Positions 1,286 through 43,066 of a DNA stretch of 51,177 nucleotides are shown here, piece by piece. Position 1 is the stretch's first letter. The number at the start of each line of letters is the position of its first letter. The translations under genes were made by a program, and so were the position numbers. The notes under the pieces were generated by a model that made no database searches, was not told where the DNA came from, and saw nothing but the letters and a program-made list of their open reading frames with translations. The DNA is from a virus (taxonomy: Duplodnaviria > Heunggongvirae > Uroviricota > Caudoviricetes), in the IMG/VR virus record IMGVR_UViG_2579778634_000021; one strand, written 5' to 3'.

Positions 1286-1495
1286 AACCGCAGCACGTTC
1301 TTGCTTAAGACGTGCTGCGGCATAATCCCAATGATTACTCCCTGACAGGGTTCGTAGGCCACTCAATATCAGGTGCAGTTGATGTATCAACACGGTTCAG
1401 CAACACCCGATACTTTTTCCAGGCTTCCAGCAACGAGATTTCTTCCTCTGTTGCAATTTCCAGATCTGCAGCATCCTGAAGCGGCGCAATATGCT
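1286..1495. repeat. direct repeat copy B (tfa 3' end plus terminator hairpin)
   Basis: Partner of 235..450. Contains the 11-bp-stem hairpin ccgcagcacgt/acgtgctgcgg immediately after the tfa stop. Confidence 0.7.
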
Positions 1496-1919
1496 CGCTG
1501 GCTACCTGCATCAGGCTGTTTTTTGTTTCTTCCGCCTCCCGGATCCGGAACAGTTTTTCTGCTTCCGTATCCTTCACCCAGGCTGTGCCGTTCCACTTCT
1601 GAAACTCCCCTTCCGGCGATAACCAGGTAACATTTTCCGGTAACGGACCGAGTTCAGAAATAAATAACTCGTCCCCTGACGCTACGTCATAAACCGTTTT
1701 ACCCCGATGGTCTTCAACGAGATGCCACGATGCCTCATCACTGTTGAAAACAGCCACAAAGCCAGCAGGAATATCTGGTGGTGCAATATCGGTACTGTTT
1801 GCTGGCAGACCTGTATGAGGCGGAATATATGCGTCACCTTCACCAATAAATTCATTAGTTCCGGCCAGCAGATTATAAATTTTTATGGTCCGTGCTTGTT
1901 CACTCATTCTGAATGCCAT
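1335..1919 (-). CDS. tfa: tail fibre assembly protein Tfa
   Basis: 194-aa ORF directly downstream of the side tail fibre gene, with the start overlapping the stf stop. Conserved Tfa C-terminal domain. Confidence 0.85.
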
Positions 1920-28336: not shown

Positions 28337-30310
28337 TTATGCTGCTACGGCATTCACACCAACAGTAAGACTTTCAATCAGCACAGGGTAAGTTGCCGCA
28401 TTTCCGGTAATATCCGTAATTGCCAGCGCGTTGGCCTCAAAGGCTGCATTCGTCCATCTGGTCAGCGTAAACGGTTTTCCTGCTGCATTATCAAGCACCG
28501 GCGTGACGTTCAGCGAGCCACCACCCGGGAAGCGGAAAGTCAGCGTGTGCCAGTCGTGATCGAACGGACCATAACTACCAAGCCGCTGTGATGTGGTGTT
28601 TGCATGATACATCACATTGATGTTTGTTTTATCAGTCTGCAGATAGAAGGCCGCAATATAACCCTCCTCTGATTCCGCTCCCGGCCATCCACTACCGCGC
28701 CAGTAAATACCCGCAGAATATTGATTTGCAGAAGCATTGAGAGATACATCATCGGGGATTTTAAAGCGCAGCGTGATTTCACCGCCGTTATCGAACAGCT
28801 CCTTCCCCTTACCGGCATCAATTGCGTGCGATACTTTCCAGGTCTTTTTCTGTGCAAGACCATTTTCTGGTTTTTCAAGACGAAGGGCTTTTTTACCTGA
28901 ACCACTGTCACTGACCAGCGTGTTTTTGACATCTGTCAGCGTCCAGCCCTGCGAAGCCAGAGCGGCATTTTCCGCATTCACATCATAAGCCAGCACTGAC
29001 TGTATCTTTGTCGGGACAACGGCTTCAGGCTGAGTATCGCCACTCTCCTGTGCTGGTTGCGATACGCCTCCGCCTGAAGAAACCGCGGCTTTTGTCACTT
29101 TCCCGGAAACAAAATCTGCCACTCTGCCCACATGCAGAAGAATGGCTGTTGCCAGACGGTCGGAAATAATTCCGCGACGCGCCCATGAACCAAAGTGGGT
29201 TTTACGATCGGATGTTGTCCAGCTCTTCGCATCCGTTCGTCCACCGGAACCATAATACCCGATAGCCGGAATATCCGGGTCTTCTGACGGTTCATTGGTC
29301 CCGACTTTCTGACCATTGTCATCCATCATAAACGGCACAAAGAAGATATTTTTACCGGCTTTGGTTTTGTATGCGCCATAGACGGCATCGTATTGCGCTG
29401 AATACGTCTCCTTCCAGTAGTACGTCGTGTCACCACAAATCCAGGGCACCAGAGAAGGAGAAGCACCAGCGCACTGACCGGATACTCCCGCCAGGTCAGA
29501 ACGGTATTTTTCCACCATGGCATCAAACATGGCGGGCTGACTGGCGTACGCTCCCTGTTTTAAATCAAACTCGCCCTGCATCCAGACAACACAAAGCAGT
29601 ATGTTTTTGGGGTTTGCCTTCAGCGCGGCCTGAGTGCGTGTCAGCAGGTCTTTATACAACGGCTTATCAACGCCCCATCGTTCAGATTTATCCGACGCTC
29701 CTGAACTTTCACTGAACGTTCCGTCAGCACCGGCTGTAAACGCAGAGCCACCACGACAGCACGGCACTAACAAAATACCCGCATTTTCCGGCATAAAGGG
29801 CAACAGCTTTTTGGCAATATGCAATCCCTGTCCGACACACCCATACTGCTCTGCGCTGGCTTTCGGATGAGAAAAACGGCTCAAATCCTGCACATCATGC
29901 AGGCAGTGGTCCGCCGGAATGATGTCGTTATATGCACAGGCCGCACCACCCGGTGTCACCGTACTGCGACGCGCCAGCTGTTTAATACGCGGGTCCGGAC
30001 GGTCATATGTCTCCGGCAGCGGCAGGCCTTCACCATACGCCATGCCGTTTGACTGTCCGGCCAGCGCAATGACAAAGTAATATTCTGGTTCAACAACAAC
30101 AGTCCGGGTACCATCTCCCCCCGGTGAAACTACCGGAGAGGTCATATCCCCTTCAGCGACTATAGCCTGGATAAATTCAGCACCATAACCCGCGTTTGAG
30201 ATAATCGGACTACCATAGGGTTGCCAGCCTTCCTTCAGTTTTTGCGTCAGTTTTCCTGCGAGGTCTGACGGCGATGATGCCCTGACCACGTCATAGTGTT
30301 TAAATGCCAT
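28337..30310 (-). CDS. nanS: prophage sialate O-acetylesterase-like protein (NanS-p type)
   Basis: About 657 aa from MAFKHYDVV. N-terminal domain typical of prophage NanS-p, a GQSN esterase motif, and the usual position between the Q region and the lysis cassette. Confidence 0.75.
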   Translation of the reverse strand: MAFKHYDVVRASSPSDLAGKLTQKLKEGWQPYGSPIISNAGYGAEFIQAIVAEGDMTSPVVSPGGDGTRTVVVEPEYYFVIALAGQSNGMAYGEGLPLPETYDRPDPRIKQLARRSTVTPGGAACAYNDIIPADHCLHDVQDLSRFSHPKASAEQYGCVGQGLHIAKKLLPFMPENAGILLVPCCRGGSAFTAGADGTFSESSGASDKSERWGVDKPLYKDLLTRTQAALKANPKNILLCVVWMQGEFDLKQGAYASQPAMFDAMVEKYRSDLAGVSGQCAGASPSLVPWICGDTTYYWKETYSAQYDAVYGAYKTKAGKNIFFVPFMMDDNGQKVGTNEPSEDPDIPAIGYYGSGGRTDAKSWTTSDRKTHFGSWARRGIISDRLATAILLHVGRVADFVSGKVTKAAVSSGGGVSQPAQESGDTQPEAVVPTKIQSVLAYDVNAENAALASQGWTLTDVKNTLVSDSGSGKKALRLEKPENGLAQKKTWKVSHAIDAGKGKELFDNGGEITLRFKIPDDVSLNASANQYSAGIYWRGSGWPGAESEEGYIAAFYLQTDKTNINVMYHANTTSQRLGSYGPFDHDWHTLTFRFPGGGSLNVTPVLDNAAGKPFTLTRWTNAAFEANALAITDITGNAATYPVLIESLTVGVNAVAA

Positions 30311-30513
30311 TATTCCTCCCGGCAGGGATAGTGTATGCAATCAAGATAAGGTGCGGGCTGACGTCAGTCATGGACAAGGGTTCAGAAACAGGAGGATGAC
30401 TACAGCCCGCAATACGAAAAAGACCATACAGTTGCGCAGAGTGATTACTGTCGGGTATTATTCGCCAGCTGAAAATTGATCACTTCACGTTTTGTTGTTT
30501 ATTCCTTGCCACC

Positions 30514-30570
30514 CGCGCTTCCCGGCGCGGGCTTTTTTTTATCCAACAAGAAAGCCCCTCCGGAGAGGGG
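30514..30570. terminator. two back-to-back terminator hairpins
   Basis: cccgcgc..gcgcggg followed by T8 (plus strand), then gcccctccggagaggggc with a U-rich run on the minus strand. Confidence 0.5.
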
Positions 30571-30800
30571 CTGGAGAGTAGCGCTATGTACCGTTCATGC
30601 ATGGTGCAGGGTGCCTCCCGGTGAGTTCAGTATCAGCACCTGAACCCGCACCAGAAAGGATAAGGGGTGTGACCAAACACCTGTCGCTGATATGCCCCTC
30701 CGCACAGGGGGATTCACCATGCCATATTTTTTTAACAAACTTCCCGCTGGCCAGACAATAATCGCCAGCCTGAATTGTGAGTAACGTGGCATTTTACGGG
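30545..30800 (-). repeat. repeat unit 1 (about 250 bp, begins with the hairpin aaagcccctccggagaggggct)
   Basis: Shares several long blocks with 31025..31285, for example catggtgc.gggtgcctcccggt and gggggattcacc...tttttaacaaa...gccagacaat. Confidence 0.6.
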
Positions 30801-31024: not shown

Positions 31025-31285
31025 CTGCACAGAAAAGCCCCTCCGGAGAGGGGCTGAAGTATAGCCTAATTTCTGTCTGTCGCATGGTGCCAGGTGCCTC
31101 CCGGTAAATTCAGCCTGGCTACTGAATTTGCATGTTCGCTGGATCATACACTTTGCCAGATGCCCCGCCGCTGAGGGGGATTCACCACGCGATGCAATTT
31201 TTAACAAATTCTCCGGCAGCCAGACAATCATCAAGCTGTGGAATTGTGAGGTATTTAAAAATTTCGCAGCCTCTTGCCACCCGCT
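31025..31285 (-). repeat. repeat unit 2
   Basis: Same block order as unit 1. A degenerate third copy lies between them at about 30821..30960. Confidence 0.6.
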
Positions 31286-31369
31286 TTTCACAAAAATCGT
31301 ATGTAGAAGGCCGCAGCGTAACTATCACTGATGAATTCAGGACACCCAGAGGCTACGGCTCAGTTTGGA

Positions 31370-31441
31370 TTGTGGCGGCCGGAATCGAACCAGCTCCCAT
31401 CGGTGCGCTGCCGATTACAATACGCGCGGCGATCCGCTACA
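31370..31441 (-). other. tRNA-like element (degenerate; possible tRNA remnant)
   Basis: Canonical T arm (GCUGG-UUCGAUU-CCGGC), a 5-bp anticodon stem and a 6/7-bp acceptor stem. There is no recognisable D arm, the anticodon loop is atypical (cagcgca), and no CCA is encoded. Confidence 0.3.
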
Positions 31442-31760
31442 TGACTAGTATTTTCACAGTCGCCTGTCTGCTAGCTCGCCATTGAGCTTCACCACAACGA
31501 TAAGAGCACTGCGCACACCTTTCACCAATTCCACGAGGTCTGCGGGTTCAATGCTCTTACCTGTTGTGCAAACAAAAAGCCCCGACATTTCTGCCGAGGC
31601 CTTTACCTAATCTAGCCAGTATGCCGATCCTAAATATTATCGACGACCGAGGTAAATCAGGATTTCTCTTTCGCTTCTCAGTGCGCTTTTGCTCCGAGCA
31701 TACACAAAACATACTACTTTCATTTCTCGAAAGCAACGCATTTACAAAAAATATTTTGCA

Positions 31761-32387
31761 TCATCTAGCAATCACTAGAAGTTCTTTCTCCAATTCTCGC
31801 TTCATTGCATAAAACATTTCTGAATCAAGGACCCTCTCGCACCACACGACCCGCCTCCGGCAATACTGAATATCAACTCCTGTTATCTGAGAAATCATCC
31901 TGGCGATATCTTGCGTGCTGTCGCGATTGCAATATCGCCTAATAGCTACATCACGGACAGGGCTTTCACGATGAAAGGTCTCAACCATCACACGTTCAAC
32001 GAAAGCAGCATCATCGGATTCTTTGGCGAGAGCAATGATATTACCTGCCGATGACTGAGGGATGACCAGTTCTCGGGCTTTCTGATGGAGTTCATCTCCA
32101 CGTAGTCCGTCTTCTTCATACAGACGCATGACAACAGACTCAATCTGCTTAGCTTTGTCATCGCTCCACTGACTGCGAATCATCAGTCGCCCAATAACGT
32201 TAATTGCACCACAAGGAGAATCATCACCAGCGTTAACATTTCCCCATACCTGTAGCATGTAGTGAACCCATGCTTTCTGACGAGAGTTAATGATTTTCTT
32301 CGGATGCCTCCATATGCGGCGGAAATGAGCATCATTAATAAAGTTAACCATGCCGAATACTGGGGTTAGCCGCATCACAGCCCCCAT
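31761..32387 (-). CDS. putative late-gene regulator in the Q position (Q-like by position only)
   Basis: 208-aa ORF immediately upstream of the terminator-rich region and the late genes. I could not match it to lambda Q. Confidence 0.4.
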   Translation of the reverse strand: MGAVMRLTPVFGMVNFINDAHFRRIWRHPKKIINSRQKAWVHYMLQVWGNVNAGDDSPCGAINVIGRLMIRSQWSDDKAKQIESVVMRLYEEDGLRGDELHQKARELVIPQSSAGNIIALAKESDDAAFVERVMVETFHRESPVRDVAIRRYCNRDSTQDIARMISQITGVDIQYCRRRVVWCERVLDSEMFYAMKRELEKELLVIAR

Positions 32388-34834: not shown

Positions 34835-35112
34835 GACAACGCCCTCTGGTTGATGAATTTAACTATCACCACCGTCAGGTGCAAATCTTTGGGTGGTGAG
34901 ACGTACAGGGTTTGCACTACCGGATCAACCAACCGGCGAGCCTTTCGGCTCCCCCATACGCCCCACCATAATTCAGATGTGCGTGTGCTTACGACAACAA
35001 AAAACACGCTCGCGGCGTGTGTCTGTCGCGGTTGAATATCCGGGGTGCAAATCCCGACGCCAGATTTTGCTGGCGCGTGAGGAATATAGCCCCGAATAAA
35101 TCATCACGTCAA

Positions 35113-35819: not shown

Positions 35820-36262
35820 GCAGCCTTCCCTTTTCGTTGTGACCATTCATACTCTCGCCAGGAGTCATCACTCCACCGCACGTTGCGCTCTGAGCCGAAC
35901 CAGAACATGATTTCGATAAGCTCAGTCATGTTGGCCTTTCGCATTTTGCTGGTACGCACACCAAGCATGACAACGCCACCGTCGATACCAGGCACACTTC
36001 GTTGCTCCAGTTTTTTGGTCTTAAGCCACAGGGCAGTGAACAGGTCTTTCCAGTCTTCCGGCGCCAGCCGTTGACCATGCCATAGCACCTGACGCGAAAC
36101 ATCGTTCAGCATCGGCCACATACGGTCATTCTGCGCTTTGCTGCGCTTGGGTTCTTTAACGTGGACTTCGTGGGGTGACTTGTCGTCGATGGGTAGTGAG
36201 AGAATGGCGTCTATGGCGTTATTTCTGATTGCTTCGTTGCGAAGCAGAAAGGTTTGCTTCAT
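35816..36262 (-). CDS. ninB: NinB recombination protein (copy 2)
   Basis: Start taken at MKQTFLLRNEAIRNNAIDAIL. Paralog of 33668..34078. Confidence 0.8.
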   Translation of the reverse strand: MKQTFLLRNEAIRNNAIDAILSLPIDDKSPHEVHVKEPKRSKAQNDRMWPMLNDVSRQVLWHGQRLAPEDWKDLFTALWLKTKKLEQRSVPGIDGGVVMLGVRTSKMRKANMTELIEIMFWFGSERNVRWSDDSWREYEWSQRKGKAA

Positions 36263-36461
36263 CTCCTGCTCTCCGGTTCCATTTTTCAGCCGCCGCAGCA
36301 ACTGATGGTGCCCATGCCCCCCTGGCTTCACAGAGGTCACATTCTGCATAGCCCCACACATCAATATTTATTCCGGCCTCAACCCACAGACGAGCATTAC
36401 CGCCGCAAAACGGACATTCTTTTAGCTTTGGCTGGGTTAATGATAGGTCGCTCATGCTCAC
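36219..36461 (-). CDS. Lar-family restriction alleviation protein (zinc ribbon)
   Basis: 80 aa with CPFCGG ... CDLC ... WNRRA, the pattern of the Lar family. Its 3' end overlaps the ninB copy 2 start. Confidence 0.55.
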   Translation of the reverse strand: MSMSDLSLTQPKLKECPFCGGNARLWVEAGINIDVWGYAECDLCEARGAWAPSVAAAAEKWNRRAGDEANLSASQRSNQK

Positions 36462-36465
36462 TCCT

Positions 36466-36681
36466 TCACTTTAAATCCAGACTCCGGATAATTCTGTTGC
36501 GCTGAAACTCATTGTTGAGTTTGAACAACCGTCGAAGAACACGGTCACGCGGATAGCGTCGTGCGGCAGGTGAATGCTCATACAACTCATCAAGCGGCAA
36601 ACTGGACGATGAACGATACCGATACCAACGCACCAACTCTTCACGAAAATTAGCCCTGACAAGCTCAGCTATCGTACTCAT
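36466..36681 (-). CDS. hypothetical protein
   Basis: 71-aa basic ORF between ren and the Lar-like gene. Confidence 0.4.
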   Translation of the reverse strand: MSTIAELVRANFREELVRWYRYRSSSSLPLDELYEHSPAARRYPRDRVLRRLFKLNNEFQRNRIIRSLDLK

Positions 36682-42861: not shown

Positions 42862-42925
42862 ATGCATACCAATAACGCTTCACTAGAGGCGTTTTCGTTA
42901 TGTGTAAATAAATAAGGAGCACACC

Positions 42926-43066
42926 ATGCAATATGCCATTGCAGGGTGGCCTGTTGCTGGCTGCCCTTCCGAATCTTTACTTGAACGAATCACCCGTAAA
43001 TTACGTGACGGATGGAAACGCCTTATCGACATACTTAATCAGCCAGGAGTTCCCAAAAATGGATAA
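42926..43066 (+). CDS. cIII: cIII (FtsH inhibitor)
   Basis: 46-aa [49 protein letters not shown], which matches lambda cIII. Not in the supplied ORF track because it is under 60 aa. Confidence 0.85.
   Translation: MQYAIAGWPVAGCPSESLLERITRKLRDGWKRLIDILNQPGVPKNG

Follow-up and report, generated by a model that had tools for sequence, protein, structure and literature searches.

On the minus strand of a 51,177-nt stretch of DNA from a virus of the class Caudoviricetes (IMG/VR record IMGVR_UViG_2579778634_000021; this whole stretch is referred to as the window), positions 31366..31498 hold a tRNA-shaped element of 133 nt whose fold is under RNA-level selection. An earlier note, made from the sequence alone, had flagged 72 nt of it as a degenerate tRNA-like element downstream of a Q-like antiterminator gene; the flagged stretch is the 3' portion of an RNA that runs from 31498 to 31366. 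Our reading, to which we assign a probability of about 0.6, is that this stretch belongs to a non-decoding, tRNA-derived module in the Q-dependent late leader of a lambdoid prophage, that the module is probably excised from its transcript and that it may dimerise. On its predicted fold the element is a tRNA-Arg-like cloverleaf with a structured arm of 55 nt added at the junction of the D and anticodon arms. Its parts, in window coordinates, are as follows.

31366..31498 (-), the complete tRNA-shaped element of 133 nt, starting with the acceptor and finishing with the encoded CCA (covariance model, covariation and RNAalifold).
31490..31498 (-), 5' strand of the acceptor stem, GUUGUGGUG, partner of 31369-31377.
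31369..31377 (-), 3' strand of the acceptor stem, CGCCACAAU; its outermost pair, G.U in the window, is G-C in most relatives.
31474..31487 (-), D arm GCUC-AAUGGC-GAGC (stem 31487-84 / 31477-74), with GG as in a tRNA D loop; aligned to the D arm of the Rfam tRNA model RF00005.
31417..31471 (-), extra arm of 55 nt between the D arm and the anticodon arm, comprising P2 and P3.
31471-68 / 31420-17 (-), P2 helix of the extra arm.
31464-57 / 31436-28 (-), P3 helix of the extra arm, with a 20-nt loop.
31427-21 (-), extra-arm junction GCGCGUA.
31444..31449 (-), self-complementary hexamer ACUAGU in the P3 loop, a candidate kissing-loop dimerisation site.
31399..31415 (-), equivalent of the anticodon arm (P4), AUCGG-CAGCGCA-CCGAU (stem 31415-11 / 31403-399), with A33 and C37 in the loop.
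31378..31394 (-), T arm GCUGG-UUCGAUU-CCGGC (stem 31394-90 / 31382-78).
31366..31368 (-), encoded CCA after U31369, read from the sequence and placed by the covariance model.

The acceptor stem is about 8-9 bp long (9 bp in the drawn fold, 31498-90 / 31377-69), and P4 is followed by a variable loop of the normal 4 nt. The covariance model of 36 homologues (R1) places the window copy at 31500..31365 with a score of 137.6 bits.

The evidence for the fold is comparative. Homologues were gathered in four ways, from annotated phages and by IMG/VR patterns in the upstream flank, the anticodon-arm hairpin and the D arm. An alignment of 36 distinct homologues (A2) was used to score 39 base pairs, with controls in which the 3' partners were slid by 1-3 columns. 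In this alignment 95.0% of the pair cells are paired, compared with 31-46% in the slid controls, and 17 of the 39 pairs show changes on both sides. The covariation score is 0.326, compared with at most 0.103 in the slid controls, and none of 500 shuffles reached 0.326. Helix by helix, the acceptor is paired in 96.6% of its cells, with 4 of 9 pairs changing on both sides; the T arm is 98.9% paired, with both-side changes in 3 of 5 pairs; and the D arm is 100% paired, with one-sided variation in two pairs. The extra arm adds two covarying pairs in P2 and six in P3. In the scan keyed to the D arm the P4 stem covaries as well (AUCGG/CCGAU, AUCAG/CUGAU, AUUGG/CCAAU, AUAGG/CCUAU). The RNAalifold consensus on the same alignment independently gives the acceptor, D, P2/P3, P4 and T helices, and the GG of the D loop and UUCGAYU of the T loop are invariant across the homologues. 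Of 89 unique family members, 53 have a CCA at most 5 nt from the closing stem (background, 5% of random 5-mers), and many members, including many from early leaders of the pL type, terminate in a clean 9-bp stem followed by ACCA. It is the covariation, not the folding energy, that lifts the element above chance. Single sequences of 72, 135 and 221 nt fold with z of +0.76, -0.84 and -1.58, respectively, and the cloverleaf is not recovered; the 72 nt flagged earlier thus fold no better than their shuffles.

Some of what had been read from those 72 nt holds in the homologues, and some has to be redrawn on the larger unit. The T arm and the 5-bp anticodon-type stem are present where they had been placed, and the atypical loop CAGCGCA without U33 is confirmed in the sequence. 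The acceptor stem as drawn does not stand: its 3' strand CGCCACA is correct and lies at tRNA-like spacing, whereas the 5' strand proposed for it, 31441-31434, is coincidental. That pairing (with 31378-31371) is formed in 44.1% of cells over the 36 homologues, against a shuffled mean of 44.2%, falls within the range of the slid controls and shows no covariation; the true 5' partner is found 57 nt upstream. The D arm reported as missing lies at 31487-31474, and the CCA reported as not encoded lies just beyond the end of the flagged stretch. The 72-nt boundaries give way to a unit of 133 nt, in which the insertion between the D and anticodon arms had gone unseen.

The likeness of the element to tRNA is strong in some parts and absent in others. 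ARAGORN, run for tRNA and tmRNA, found no gene anywhere in the window, and none in the 36 full-length homologues either at default or with -ps; silence of the tRNA finders was the outcome that the earlier note had named beforehand as counting against its proposal. When the extra arm was deleted in silico (P2-P3, that is, the 55-nt arm and its flanking unpaired bases, alignment columns 30/31 to 86/87), ARAGORN called a tRNA-Arg(GCG) in 26 of the 36 homologues at default and in 36 of 36 at its loosest setting (-ps80 -i), and this call is what leads us to describe the element as a tRNA-Arg-like cloverleaf with an arm inserted at the D/anticodon junction. In a permissive search of 451 nt the Rfam tRNA model RF00005 matched with 26.5 bits (gathering score 29, E=0.002). 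This match spans 31496..31370; it takes UGUGGUG for the 5' strand of the acceptor and GCUC-AAUGG-CGAGC for the D arm, passes over an insert of 74 nt and resumes with the T arm and CGCCACA.

By the features used to recognise a tRNA, the D and T arms are canonical (G18G19; T54-Psi55-C56-type loops). U33 and a purine at position 37, as expected of a 7-nt anticodon loop, are not found: across the family the P4 loop reads C(A/U)(G/U)CGCA, position 33 being A in nearly all cases, with U33 in one variant, and position 37 being C in every case. The 7-bp acceptor, the single-nucleotide connector between D and anticodon arms and the discriminator followed by CCA are replaced by 8-9 bp, the 55-nt arm and a U before CCA. 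The nearest tRNA among the flanking phage tRNAs has at most 67% identity.

The element also fell outside every other family for which membership was tested, that is, tRNA-Sec, tmRNA, STnc100 and the Y-RNA-like RNAs as well as tRNA itself. No Rfam match was obtained at the element at gathering thresholds, and even at E<=10 no family other than tRNA and tRNA-Sec matched the element or the pL-type member. tRNA-Sec (RF01852) is the best Rfam match of that pL-type member (locus L216) with 20.4 bits against a threshold of 47, and the triplet at the anticodon position is GCG/UCG, the UCA of tRNA-Sec not being present. As for tmRNA, there is no ARAGORN call at the element in the window or in 122 related loci, and the acceptor has no G3.U70. 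The STnc100 model (RF02076, threshold 47 bits) matches elsewhere in the window and nowhere in 31366-31498. YrlA/Y RNA-like families gave no Rfam match even at E<=10, and the context is a phage leader. A 44-amino-acid open reading frame over the element (31454-31588) was considered as a conserved gene and rejected, its frame not being kept in GGGA-type variants. By standard criteria the element is, as far as sequence can tell, a non-decoding RNA of tRNA derivation.

The extra arm has a feature of its own. The hexamer in the P3 loop is self-complementary in 36 of 36 aligned sequences, and two of its three pairs covary (U-A 20, A-U 14, G-C 2 for one; U-A 23, G-C 10, U.G 2, C-G 1 for the other). 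Over 132 loci, each of the 66 unique variants has the hexamer in one of seven versions, ACUAGU, UCGCGA, UCUAGA, UCUGGA, GCUAGC, UCCGGA or ACCGGU. Since UCUGGA is self-complementary solely through a tandem G.U, an intermolecular kissing loop at the RNA level is favoured over a DNA palindrome, and two copies of the RNA may dimerise through it.

The element family belongs to a larger group of leader modules that have the same acceptor and elbow chassis and differ in their interior cargo. In a scan keyed to the upstream flank, the interior enclosed by the closing stem UGUGGUG...C(A/G)CCACA ranges from 54 to 214 nt. Of 65 members that are not of the tRNA type, 42 have a 5-bp hairpin in place of the D arm and, in place of the T arm, another 5-bp hairpin whose loop is 9 nt long; both replacement stems covary over the 42 members, and in 37 of these the two loops show mutual complementarity of 5 nt or more (GCUGAU/AUCAGC). 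Such complementary loops would mimic the tRNA elbow. With the chassis constant and the interior variable, the constant part would be the tRNA part that is read by processing enzymes.

Two copies of STnc100 in the same leader share some of this design. Like the element, STnc100 has an 8-bp closing stem (NNNUGGUG/CACCANNN), an AA linker and a 5' hairpin, with a 3' hairpin stacked on the closing stem, and the Rfam consensus reads GcaUGGUG-AA-hairpin ... CCGGG-AGGCA-CCCGG directly on CACCAugC. It differs in having no tRNA D and T loops and no CCA and in carrying its own terminator. One STnc100 copy gives a weak full-length match to R1 (17.3 bits). STnc100 and PasD are detected Hfq-associated prophage small RNAs encoded near Q and esterase genes (bioRxiv 10.64898/2026.05.13.724894). 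The comparison suggests that these small RNAs are structurally related to the tRNA-shaped modules and that the element shares a structural logic with them. The Pas small RNAs were considered as the identity of the element and rejected: PasB is located among structural genes, PasA and PasC occupy the interval between esterase and holin genes, and PasD is allied to STnc100 instead.

The element is widespread among enterobacterial phages. A 141-nt query has a full-length match in 163 of 5426 complete E. coli genomes, with 92-100% identity and always in the chromosome, and no annotated feature lies under the matches in these 163 RefSeq genomes. A longer query of 501 nt (31300-31800) matched 674 genomes, of which only 18 have the same Q allele, which indicates that the block assorts independently of Q. 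The same query matched 180 phage records, mainly of Salmonella and Escherichia and also of Pantoea, Cronobacter and Shigella, and in most of these records it is the conserved block around the element that is matched; an Erwinia phage was matched by a pL-type query. Among genomes taken one per species, real copies were found in Klebsiella pneumoniae, Enterobacter intestinihominis and one probably mis-binned contig only. Exact-pattern hits in other phyla (Acidobacteriota, Verrucomicrobiota, Actinomycetes and others) were rejected as chance, about 4 being expected and R1 giving at most 21.5 bits; a further R1 hit in the window, at 36494-36638 (+) with E=0.034, is antisense to an open reading frame of the nin region and was likewise judged to be chance.

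Where the region of the element is annotated, the labels are wrong: 'hypothetical protein' (RefSeq E. coli, PhiR5_2), 'polyubiquitin-A' and, in one Skatevirus record, a 58-nt 'tRNA-Ser'. The phage records cited for these labels are ON470589/ON470594 and PQ186186. There is no Rfam 15 family for the element, and a full-text literature search, with subscription papers outside its reach, found no description of it. Because compensatory changes keep the fold and no Rfam family matches, it looks like an undescribed phage RNA family, present in many enterobacterial phages, and not like a dead tRNA gene. Of the two options offered in the earlier note, covariation across many phages thus supports the tRNA-like structural element. 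We regard it as a conserved and apparently undescribed tRNA-derived structured RNA whose biogenesis can reasonably be inferred.

The neighbourhood of the element in the window contains the following features.

31761..32387 (-), Q-like antiterminator gene, upstream (phrog_753, anti-termination protein Q-like, E=3.5e-68).
31572..31600 (-), terminator-like hairpin with a U run, at the position of tR' (from sequence; weak terminator-type match).
31499..31567 (-), module 1, upstream: closing stem ACAAC..AAGAGCAUUG / CAGUGCUCUU..GUUGU with a hypervariable interior (predicted hairpin; 100 unique upstream sequences).
31302..31365 (-), conserved block downstream of the CCA, corresponding to 'boundary sequence bsq3' of CUS-3 (homologue comparison).
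31027-31220 and 30542-30751 (-), the two copies of STnc100 (RF02076), in the same leader, 150 and 620 nt downstream (Rfam).

RusA, YbcO and NinH-like genes lie upstream of the Q-like gene. A consensus scan did not list the terminator-like hairpin at 31572..31600 and gave no minus-strand promoter between it and Q, so that pR' is unmapped in the window. In phage HK75 the annotated pR'/tR' stop exactly at the start of the homologous block, and the holin gene follows 450 nt further on. The conserved closing stem of module 1 is about 17 bp long and its interior, of 45-100 nt, is wholly different between phages, sometimes with the T-arm motif GGUUCGAnUCC. Its outer 3' strand GUUGU overlaps the 5' end of the acceptor, and its 5' strand CACAAC repeats the acceptor 3' strand CCACAA(C/U), so that two mutually exclusive pairings arise from the shared strands. 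The bsq3 block has a possible 8-bp long-range stem (GCCGUAGC ... GCUGCGGC) around further complementary segments, and may be a third structured module. Further along the same strand, a 667-amino-acid open reading frame (28337-30340) with DUF1737, SASA esterase and DUF6645 domains, of the NanS-p type, is the first long open reading frame listed after a structured leader of about 1.4 kb. Elsewhere in the window a C4 antisense RNA and isrK stand side by side, resembling the immunity arrangement of P1/P7, and there are also a lambda cIII thermoregulator and IS009; the coordinates recorded for these four are 34889-35076 (-), 42913-42971 (+) and 1378-1576 (-). Together they fit a mosaic lambdoid prophage.

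Across its relatives the element recurs in two settings, in the leaders of antiterminated operons and inside tRNA arrays. The argument from position made in the earlier note is upheld by the second of these: genuine tRNAs on the same strand abut the homologous modules in 17 of 122 related loci. At one of them (L085) the order is Asn-Tyr-Thr, module 1, module 2 and Ser, and at another module 2 is followed at once by Arg(UCU) and Met/Ile(CAU) tRNAs typical of Stx-type phages. At a further locus (L185), about 217-147 nt upstream of the element, ARAGORN reports a 71-nt 'tRNA-Ser(tga)' whose acceptor GGUGUGG/CCACACC and ACCA are the same as those of the element, which suggests tandem units sharing an acceptor stem. 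The phage L paper describes tRNA genes at the 5' start of P22-like late operons and leaves open whether they are excised from the late mRNA (PMC8022706).

The first setting extends to early operons. At three early-leader loci (L128, L138 and L161) a promoter or a nutL-type leader is followed by a small hairpin and by an element ending in ACCA, with an open reading frame matching phrog_271 ('anti-termination protein N-like') 20-40 nt after the element. In pL-type loci the stem is followed by 7 nt, CCAAAGC, that duplicate the 5' strand of the small hairpin ahead of the element. Phage phi80 (L224, JX871397) has an unannotated chassis relative at 1743-1867, between the annotated nutL core and the start codon of N, reading GAUGUGGUG ... 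UACCACAUC-GCCA, with the same closing stem and a different interior. The classic non-tRNA substrate of RNase P from phi80, 'M3 RNA', was considered for this relative and rejected, as the phi80 record puts M3 at 36229-36288, as an oop homologue.

These observations lead us to propose the following route. The coaxial acceptor/T stack, the elbow and the 3' CCA are determinants for RNase P and for the enzymes of 3'-end maturation and repair. All three are predicted to be displayed by the element, and on this ground the module would probably be excised as a tRNA is, with RNase P and other tRNA-maturation enzymes cutting it from the long leader transcript. In the late leader the cut would part the nut/tR' region from the downstream late message, and in pL-type phages it would fall between nutL and the ribosome-binding site of N. 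The cut would also free a stable, CCA-ended RNA, copies of which may pair through the hexamer of the extra arm. What, if anything, the released RNA would do in trans is a further matter, taken up below.

Several points weigh against this proposal. The tail in the window is U-CCA after a G.U pair and does not form a clean discriminator plus CCA, and energy minimisation of the single sequence gives a fold other than the cloverleaf (-46.9 versus -34.2 kcal/mol for the proposed fold). The acceptor and T stems together make 13-14 bp, compared with the 12 bp of standard RNase P substrates. In Skatevirus the element sits between genes of opposite strand, so that placement in the leader of an antiterminated operon is not universal. 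The palindrome could be a protein site at the DNA level. The homologues were collected with exact-match patterns, which biases the apparent invariance, and they represent few lineages (the effective sequence number of cmbuild is 1.03), so that independent events are fewer than the counts of covarying cells suggest. What is said here of excision, of the CCA end and of stability is, moreover, prediction.

It is possible, though we consider it unlikely, that the element is chiefly a trans-acting mimic of tRNA, an excised and possibly dimeric CCA-ended RNA that would bind and titrate a host factor with affinity for tRNA (a defence nuclease directed at tRNAs, a synthetase or a modification enzyme, for instance), with the placement in leaders ensuring both early and late expression. 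The conservation of the anticodon-like loop, the extra arm and the hexamer goes beyond what a processing signal needs, the element occurs in early (pL) and late leaders alike, and in the lytic-type Skatevirus it lies outside any leader; but no partner protein co-occurs with it consistently, and the idea would rest on inference throughout. We entertain just as tentatively a broader form of the same thought, namely that lambdoid and related enterobacterial phages possess a natural tRNA-scaffold system in the leader transcripts of antiterminated operons, with a constant chassis of acceptor stem, elbow and CCA, excision and stabilisation by host tRNA enzymes and exchangeable cargo arms, the present member being a CCA-ended look-alike of tRNA-Arg that is made dimeric by a palindromic kissing loop in its cargo arm and acts in trans on a host tRNA-binding factor; a decoy of a tRNA-targeting defence nuclease, or charging by a synthetase, would be examples.

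We give little credence to the view that the feature exists at the DNA level only, its flanks being patches of boundary-sequence homology for mosaic recombination among lambdoid phages and the RNA fold being incidental. The flanks are annotated as boundary sequences bsq3/bsq4 in CUS-3, the same closing stem surrounds interiors of widely different length, and the Q allele and the block assort independently, all of which would suit such patches. Recombination patches do not, however, predict compensatory changes in helices, self-complementarity that tolerates G.U, enrichment of CCA or conserved tRNA loop motifs. The two ideas are also compatible, as a conserved RNA module can double as a crossover point.

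Somewhat harder still to accept is a real tRNA-Arg of odd build, able to decode or to be aminoacylated, whose extra arm is tolerated or removed. The ARAGORN call of tRNA-Arg(GCG) after removal of the arm speaks for it, as do the encoded CCA and a loop that keeps C35-G36 with G or U at position 34, both giving Arg anticodons, and with U33 in one variant. Almost all members, however, have A33 and C37, and the acceptor of 8-9 bp yields an acceptor/T stack of 13-14 bp, which does not fit tRNAs of the EF-Tu type. We know of no bacterial mechanism that removes an insert at position 26, and a GCG anticodon is not needed by E. coli.

Hardly any credence is due to the other option of the earlier note, a decayed pseudogene in which a late-leader tRNA of the argN/argO type was disrupted by an insertion and now drifts and hitch-hikes: ARAGORN is silent, the Rfam tRNA match is sub-threshold, the loop has neither U33 nor R37 and related phages have real tRNAs at the same place, but drift would break helices and not compensate them, and in place of the relaxed constraint and helix erosion of a pseudogene all tRNA-type helices and the inserted arm itself are kept by compensatory changes (95% pairing, with 17 pairs in which both partners have changed), the loops of the D and T arms do not vary and the element is 88-100% identical in unrelated genomic contexts.

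If the reading as a probably excised tRNA-derived leader module is followed, the finding bears on well-studied phages. In lambdoid phages a conserved structured RNA lies unannotated downstream of Q/tR' and ahead of the lysis genes, and likewise in the interval that separates nutL-type leaders from N. Were it excised in the way proposed, the classic antitermination operons would gain a step of tRNA-type punctuation, tRNA-scaffolded RNAs would have a precedent in nature, and the element would be a rare candidate for an RNA of bacteria or phages that forms homodimers. The K-12 phage HK75 has a copy that is 94% identical, which makes these questions directly testable.

Among known systems the closest are the tRNAs of late leaders (Asn/Leu of phages L and ST64T, Asn/Thr of Sf6, ileZ-argN-argO of Stx phages). 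Like the element they lie between Q/pR'/tR' and the lysis genes on the same strand, often adjacent to it, and they have the same layout of acceptor, D, anticodon and T arms with an encoded CCA. The element differs from them in its 55-nt extra arm, its acceptor of 8-9 bp and its loop with A33 and C37.

The stable RNAs species 1 and 2 of phage T4 (rnaC, 139 nt, and rnaD, 119 nt) are similar in having the size of a tRNA-like RNA plus an insert and no function in the T4 annotation, and their processing is linked to RNase P. In T4 (L256, 4909-5172, minus strand) rnaC and rnaD directly follow tRNA-Arg in the tRNA cluster, and the 3' end of rnaD reads ...GCGCACC(A). At the end of rnaC stands a true T arm, CCGGG-UUCGAAU-CCCGG, plus a short 3' strand, and both may be RNAs of the tRNA-plus-insert kind. 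Homology was not found, however, R1 scoring rnaC at 14.1 bits, as it does ordinary T4 tRNAs; T4 is not lambdoid, and no comparable acceptor stem or hexamer was seen in rnaC by eye. The analogy is one of position and architecture only.

tRNA-Sec, class II tRNAs and allo-tRNAs share with the element an acceptor longer than 7 bp and an additional arm. In the element this arm lies 5' of the anticodon arm, outside the position of a variable arm, and it is not itself a variable arm, because a variable loop of normal length follows P4.

As a functional analogy, in lambda the leader of N contains an RNase III processing site between nutL and N. The pL-type members occupy the same place in the operon, from nutL to the start codon of N, whereas for the element it is RNase P that is implied, and there is no relationship in sequence or structure. 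The engineered 'tRNA scaffold', used for the expression of recombinant RNA, provides a last analogy. There too an acceptor and elbow chassis bears a foreign arm, and host tRNA enzymes would process and stabilise the product. The element differs in being natural, and in that its cargo sits at the D/anticodon junction or replaces the whole anticodon domain.

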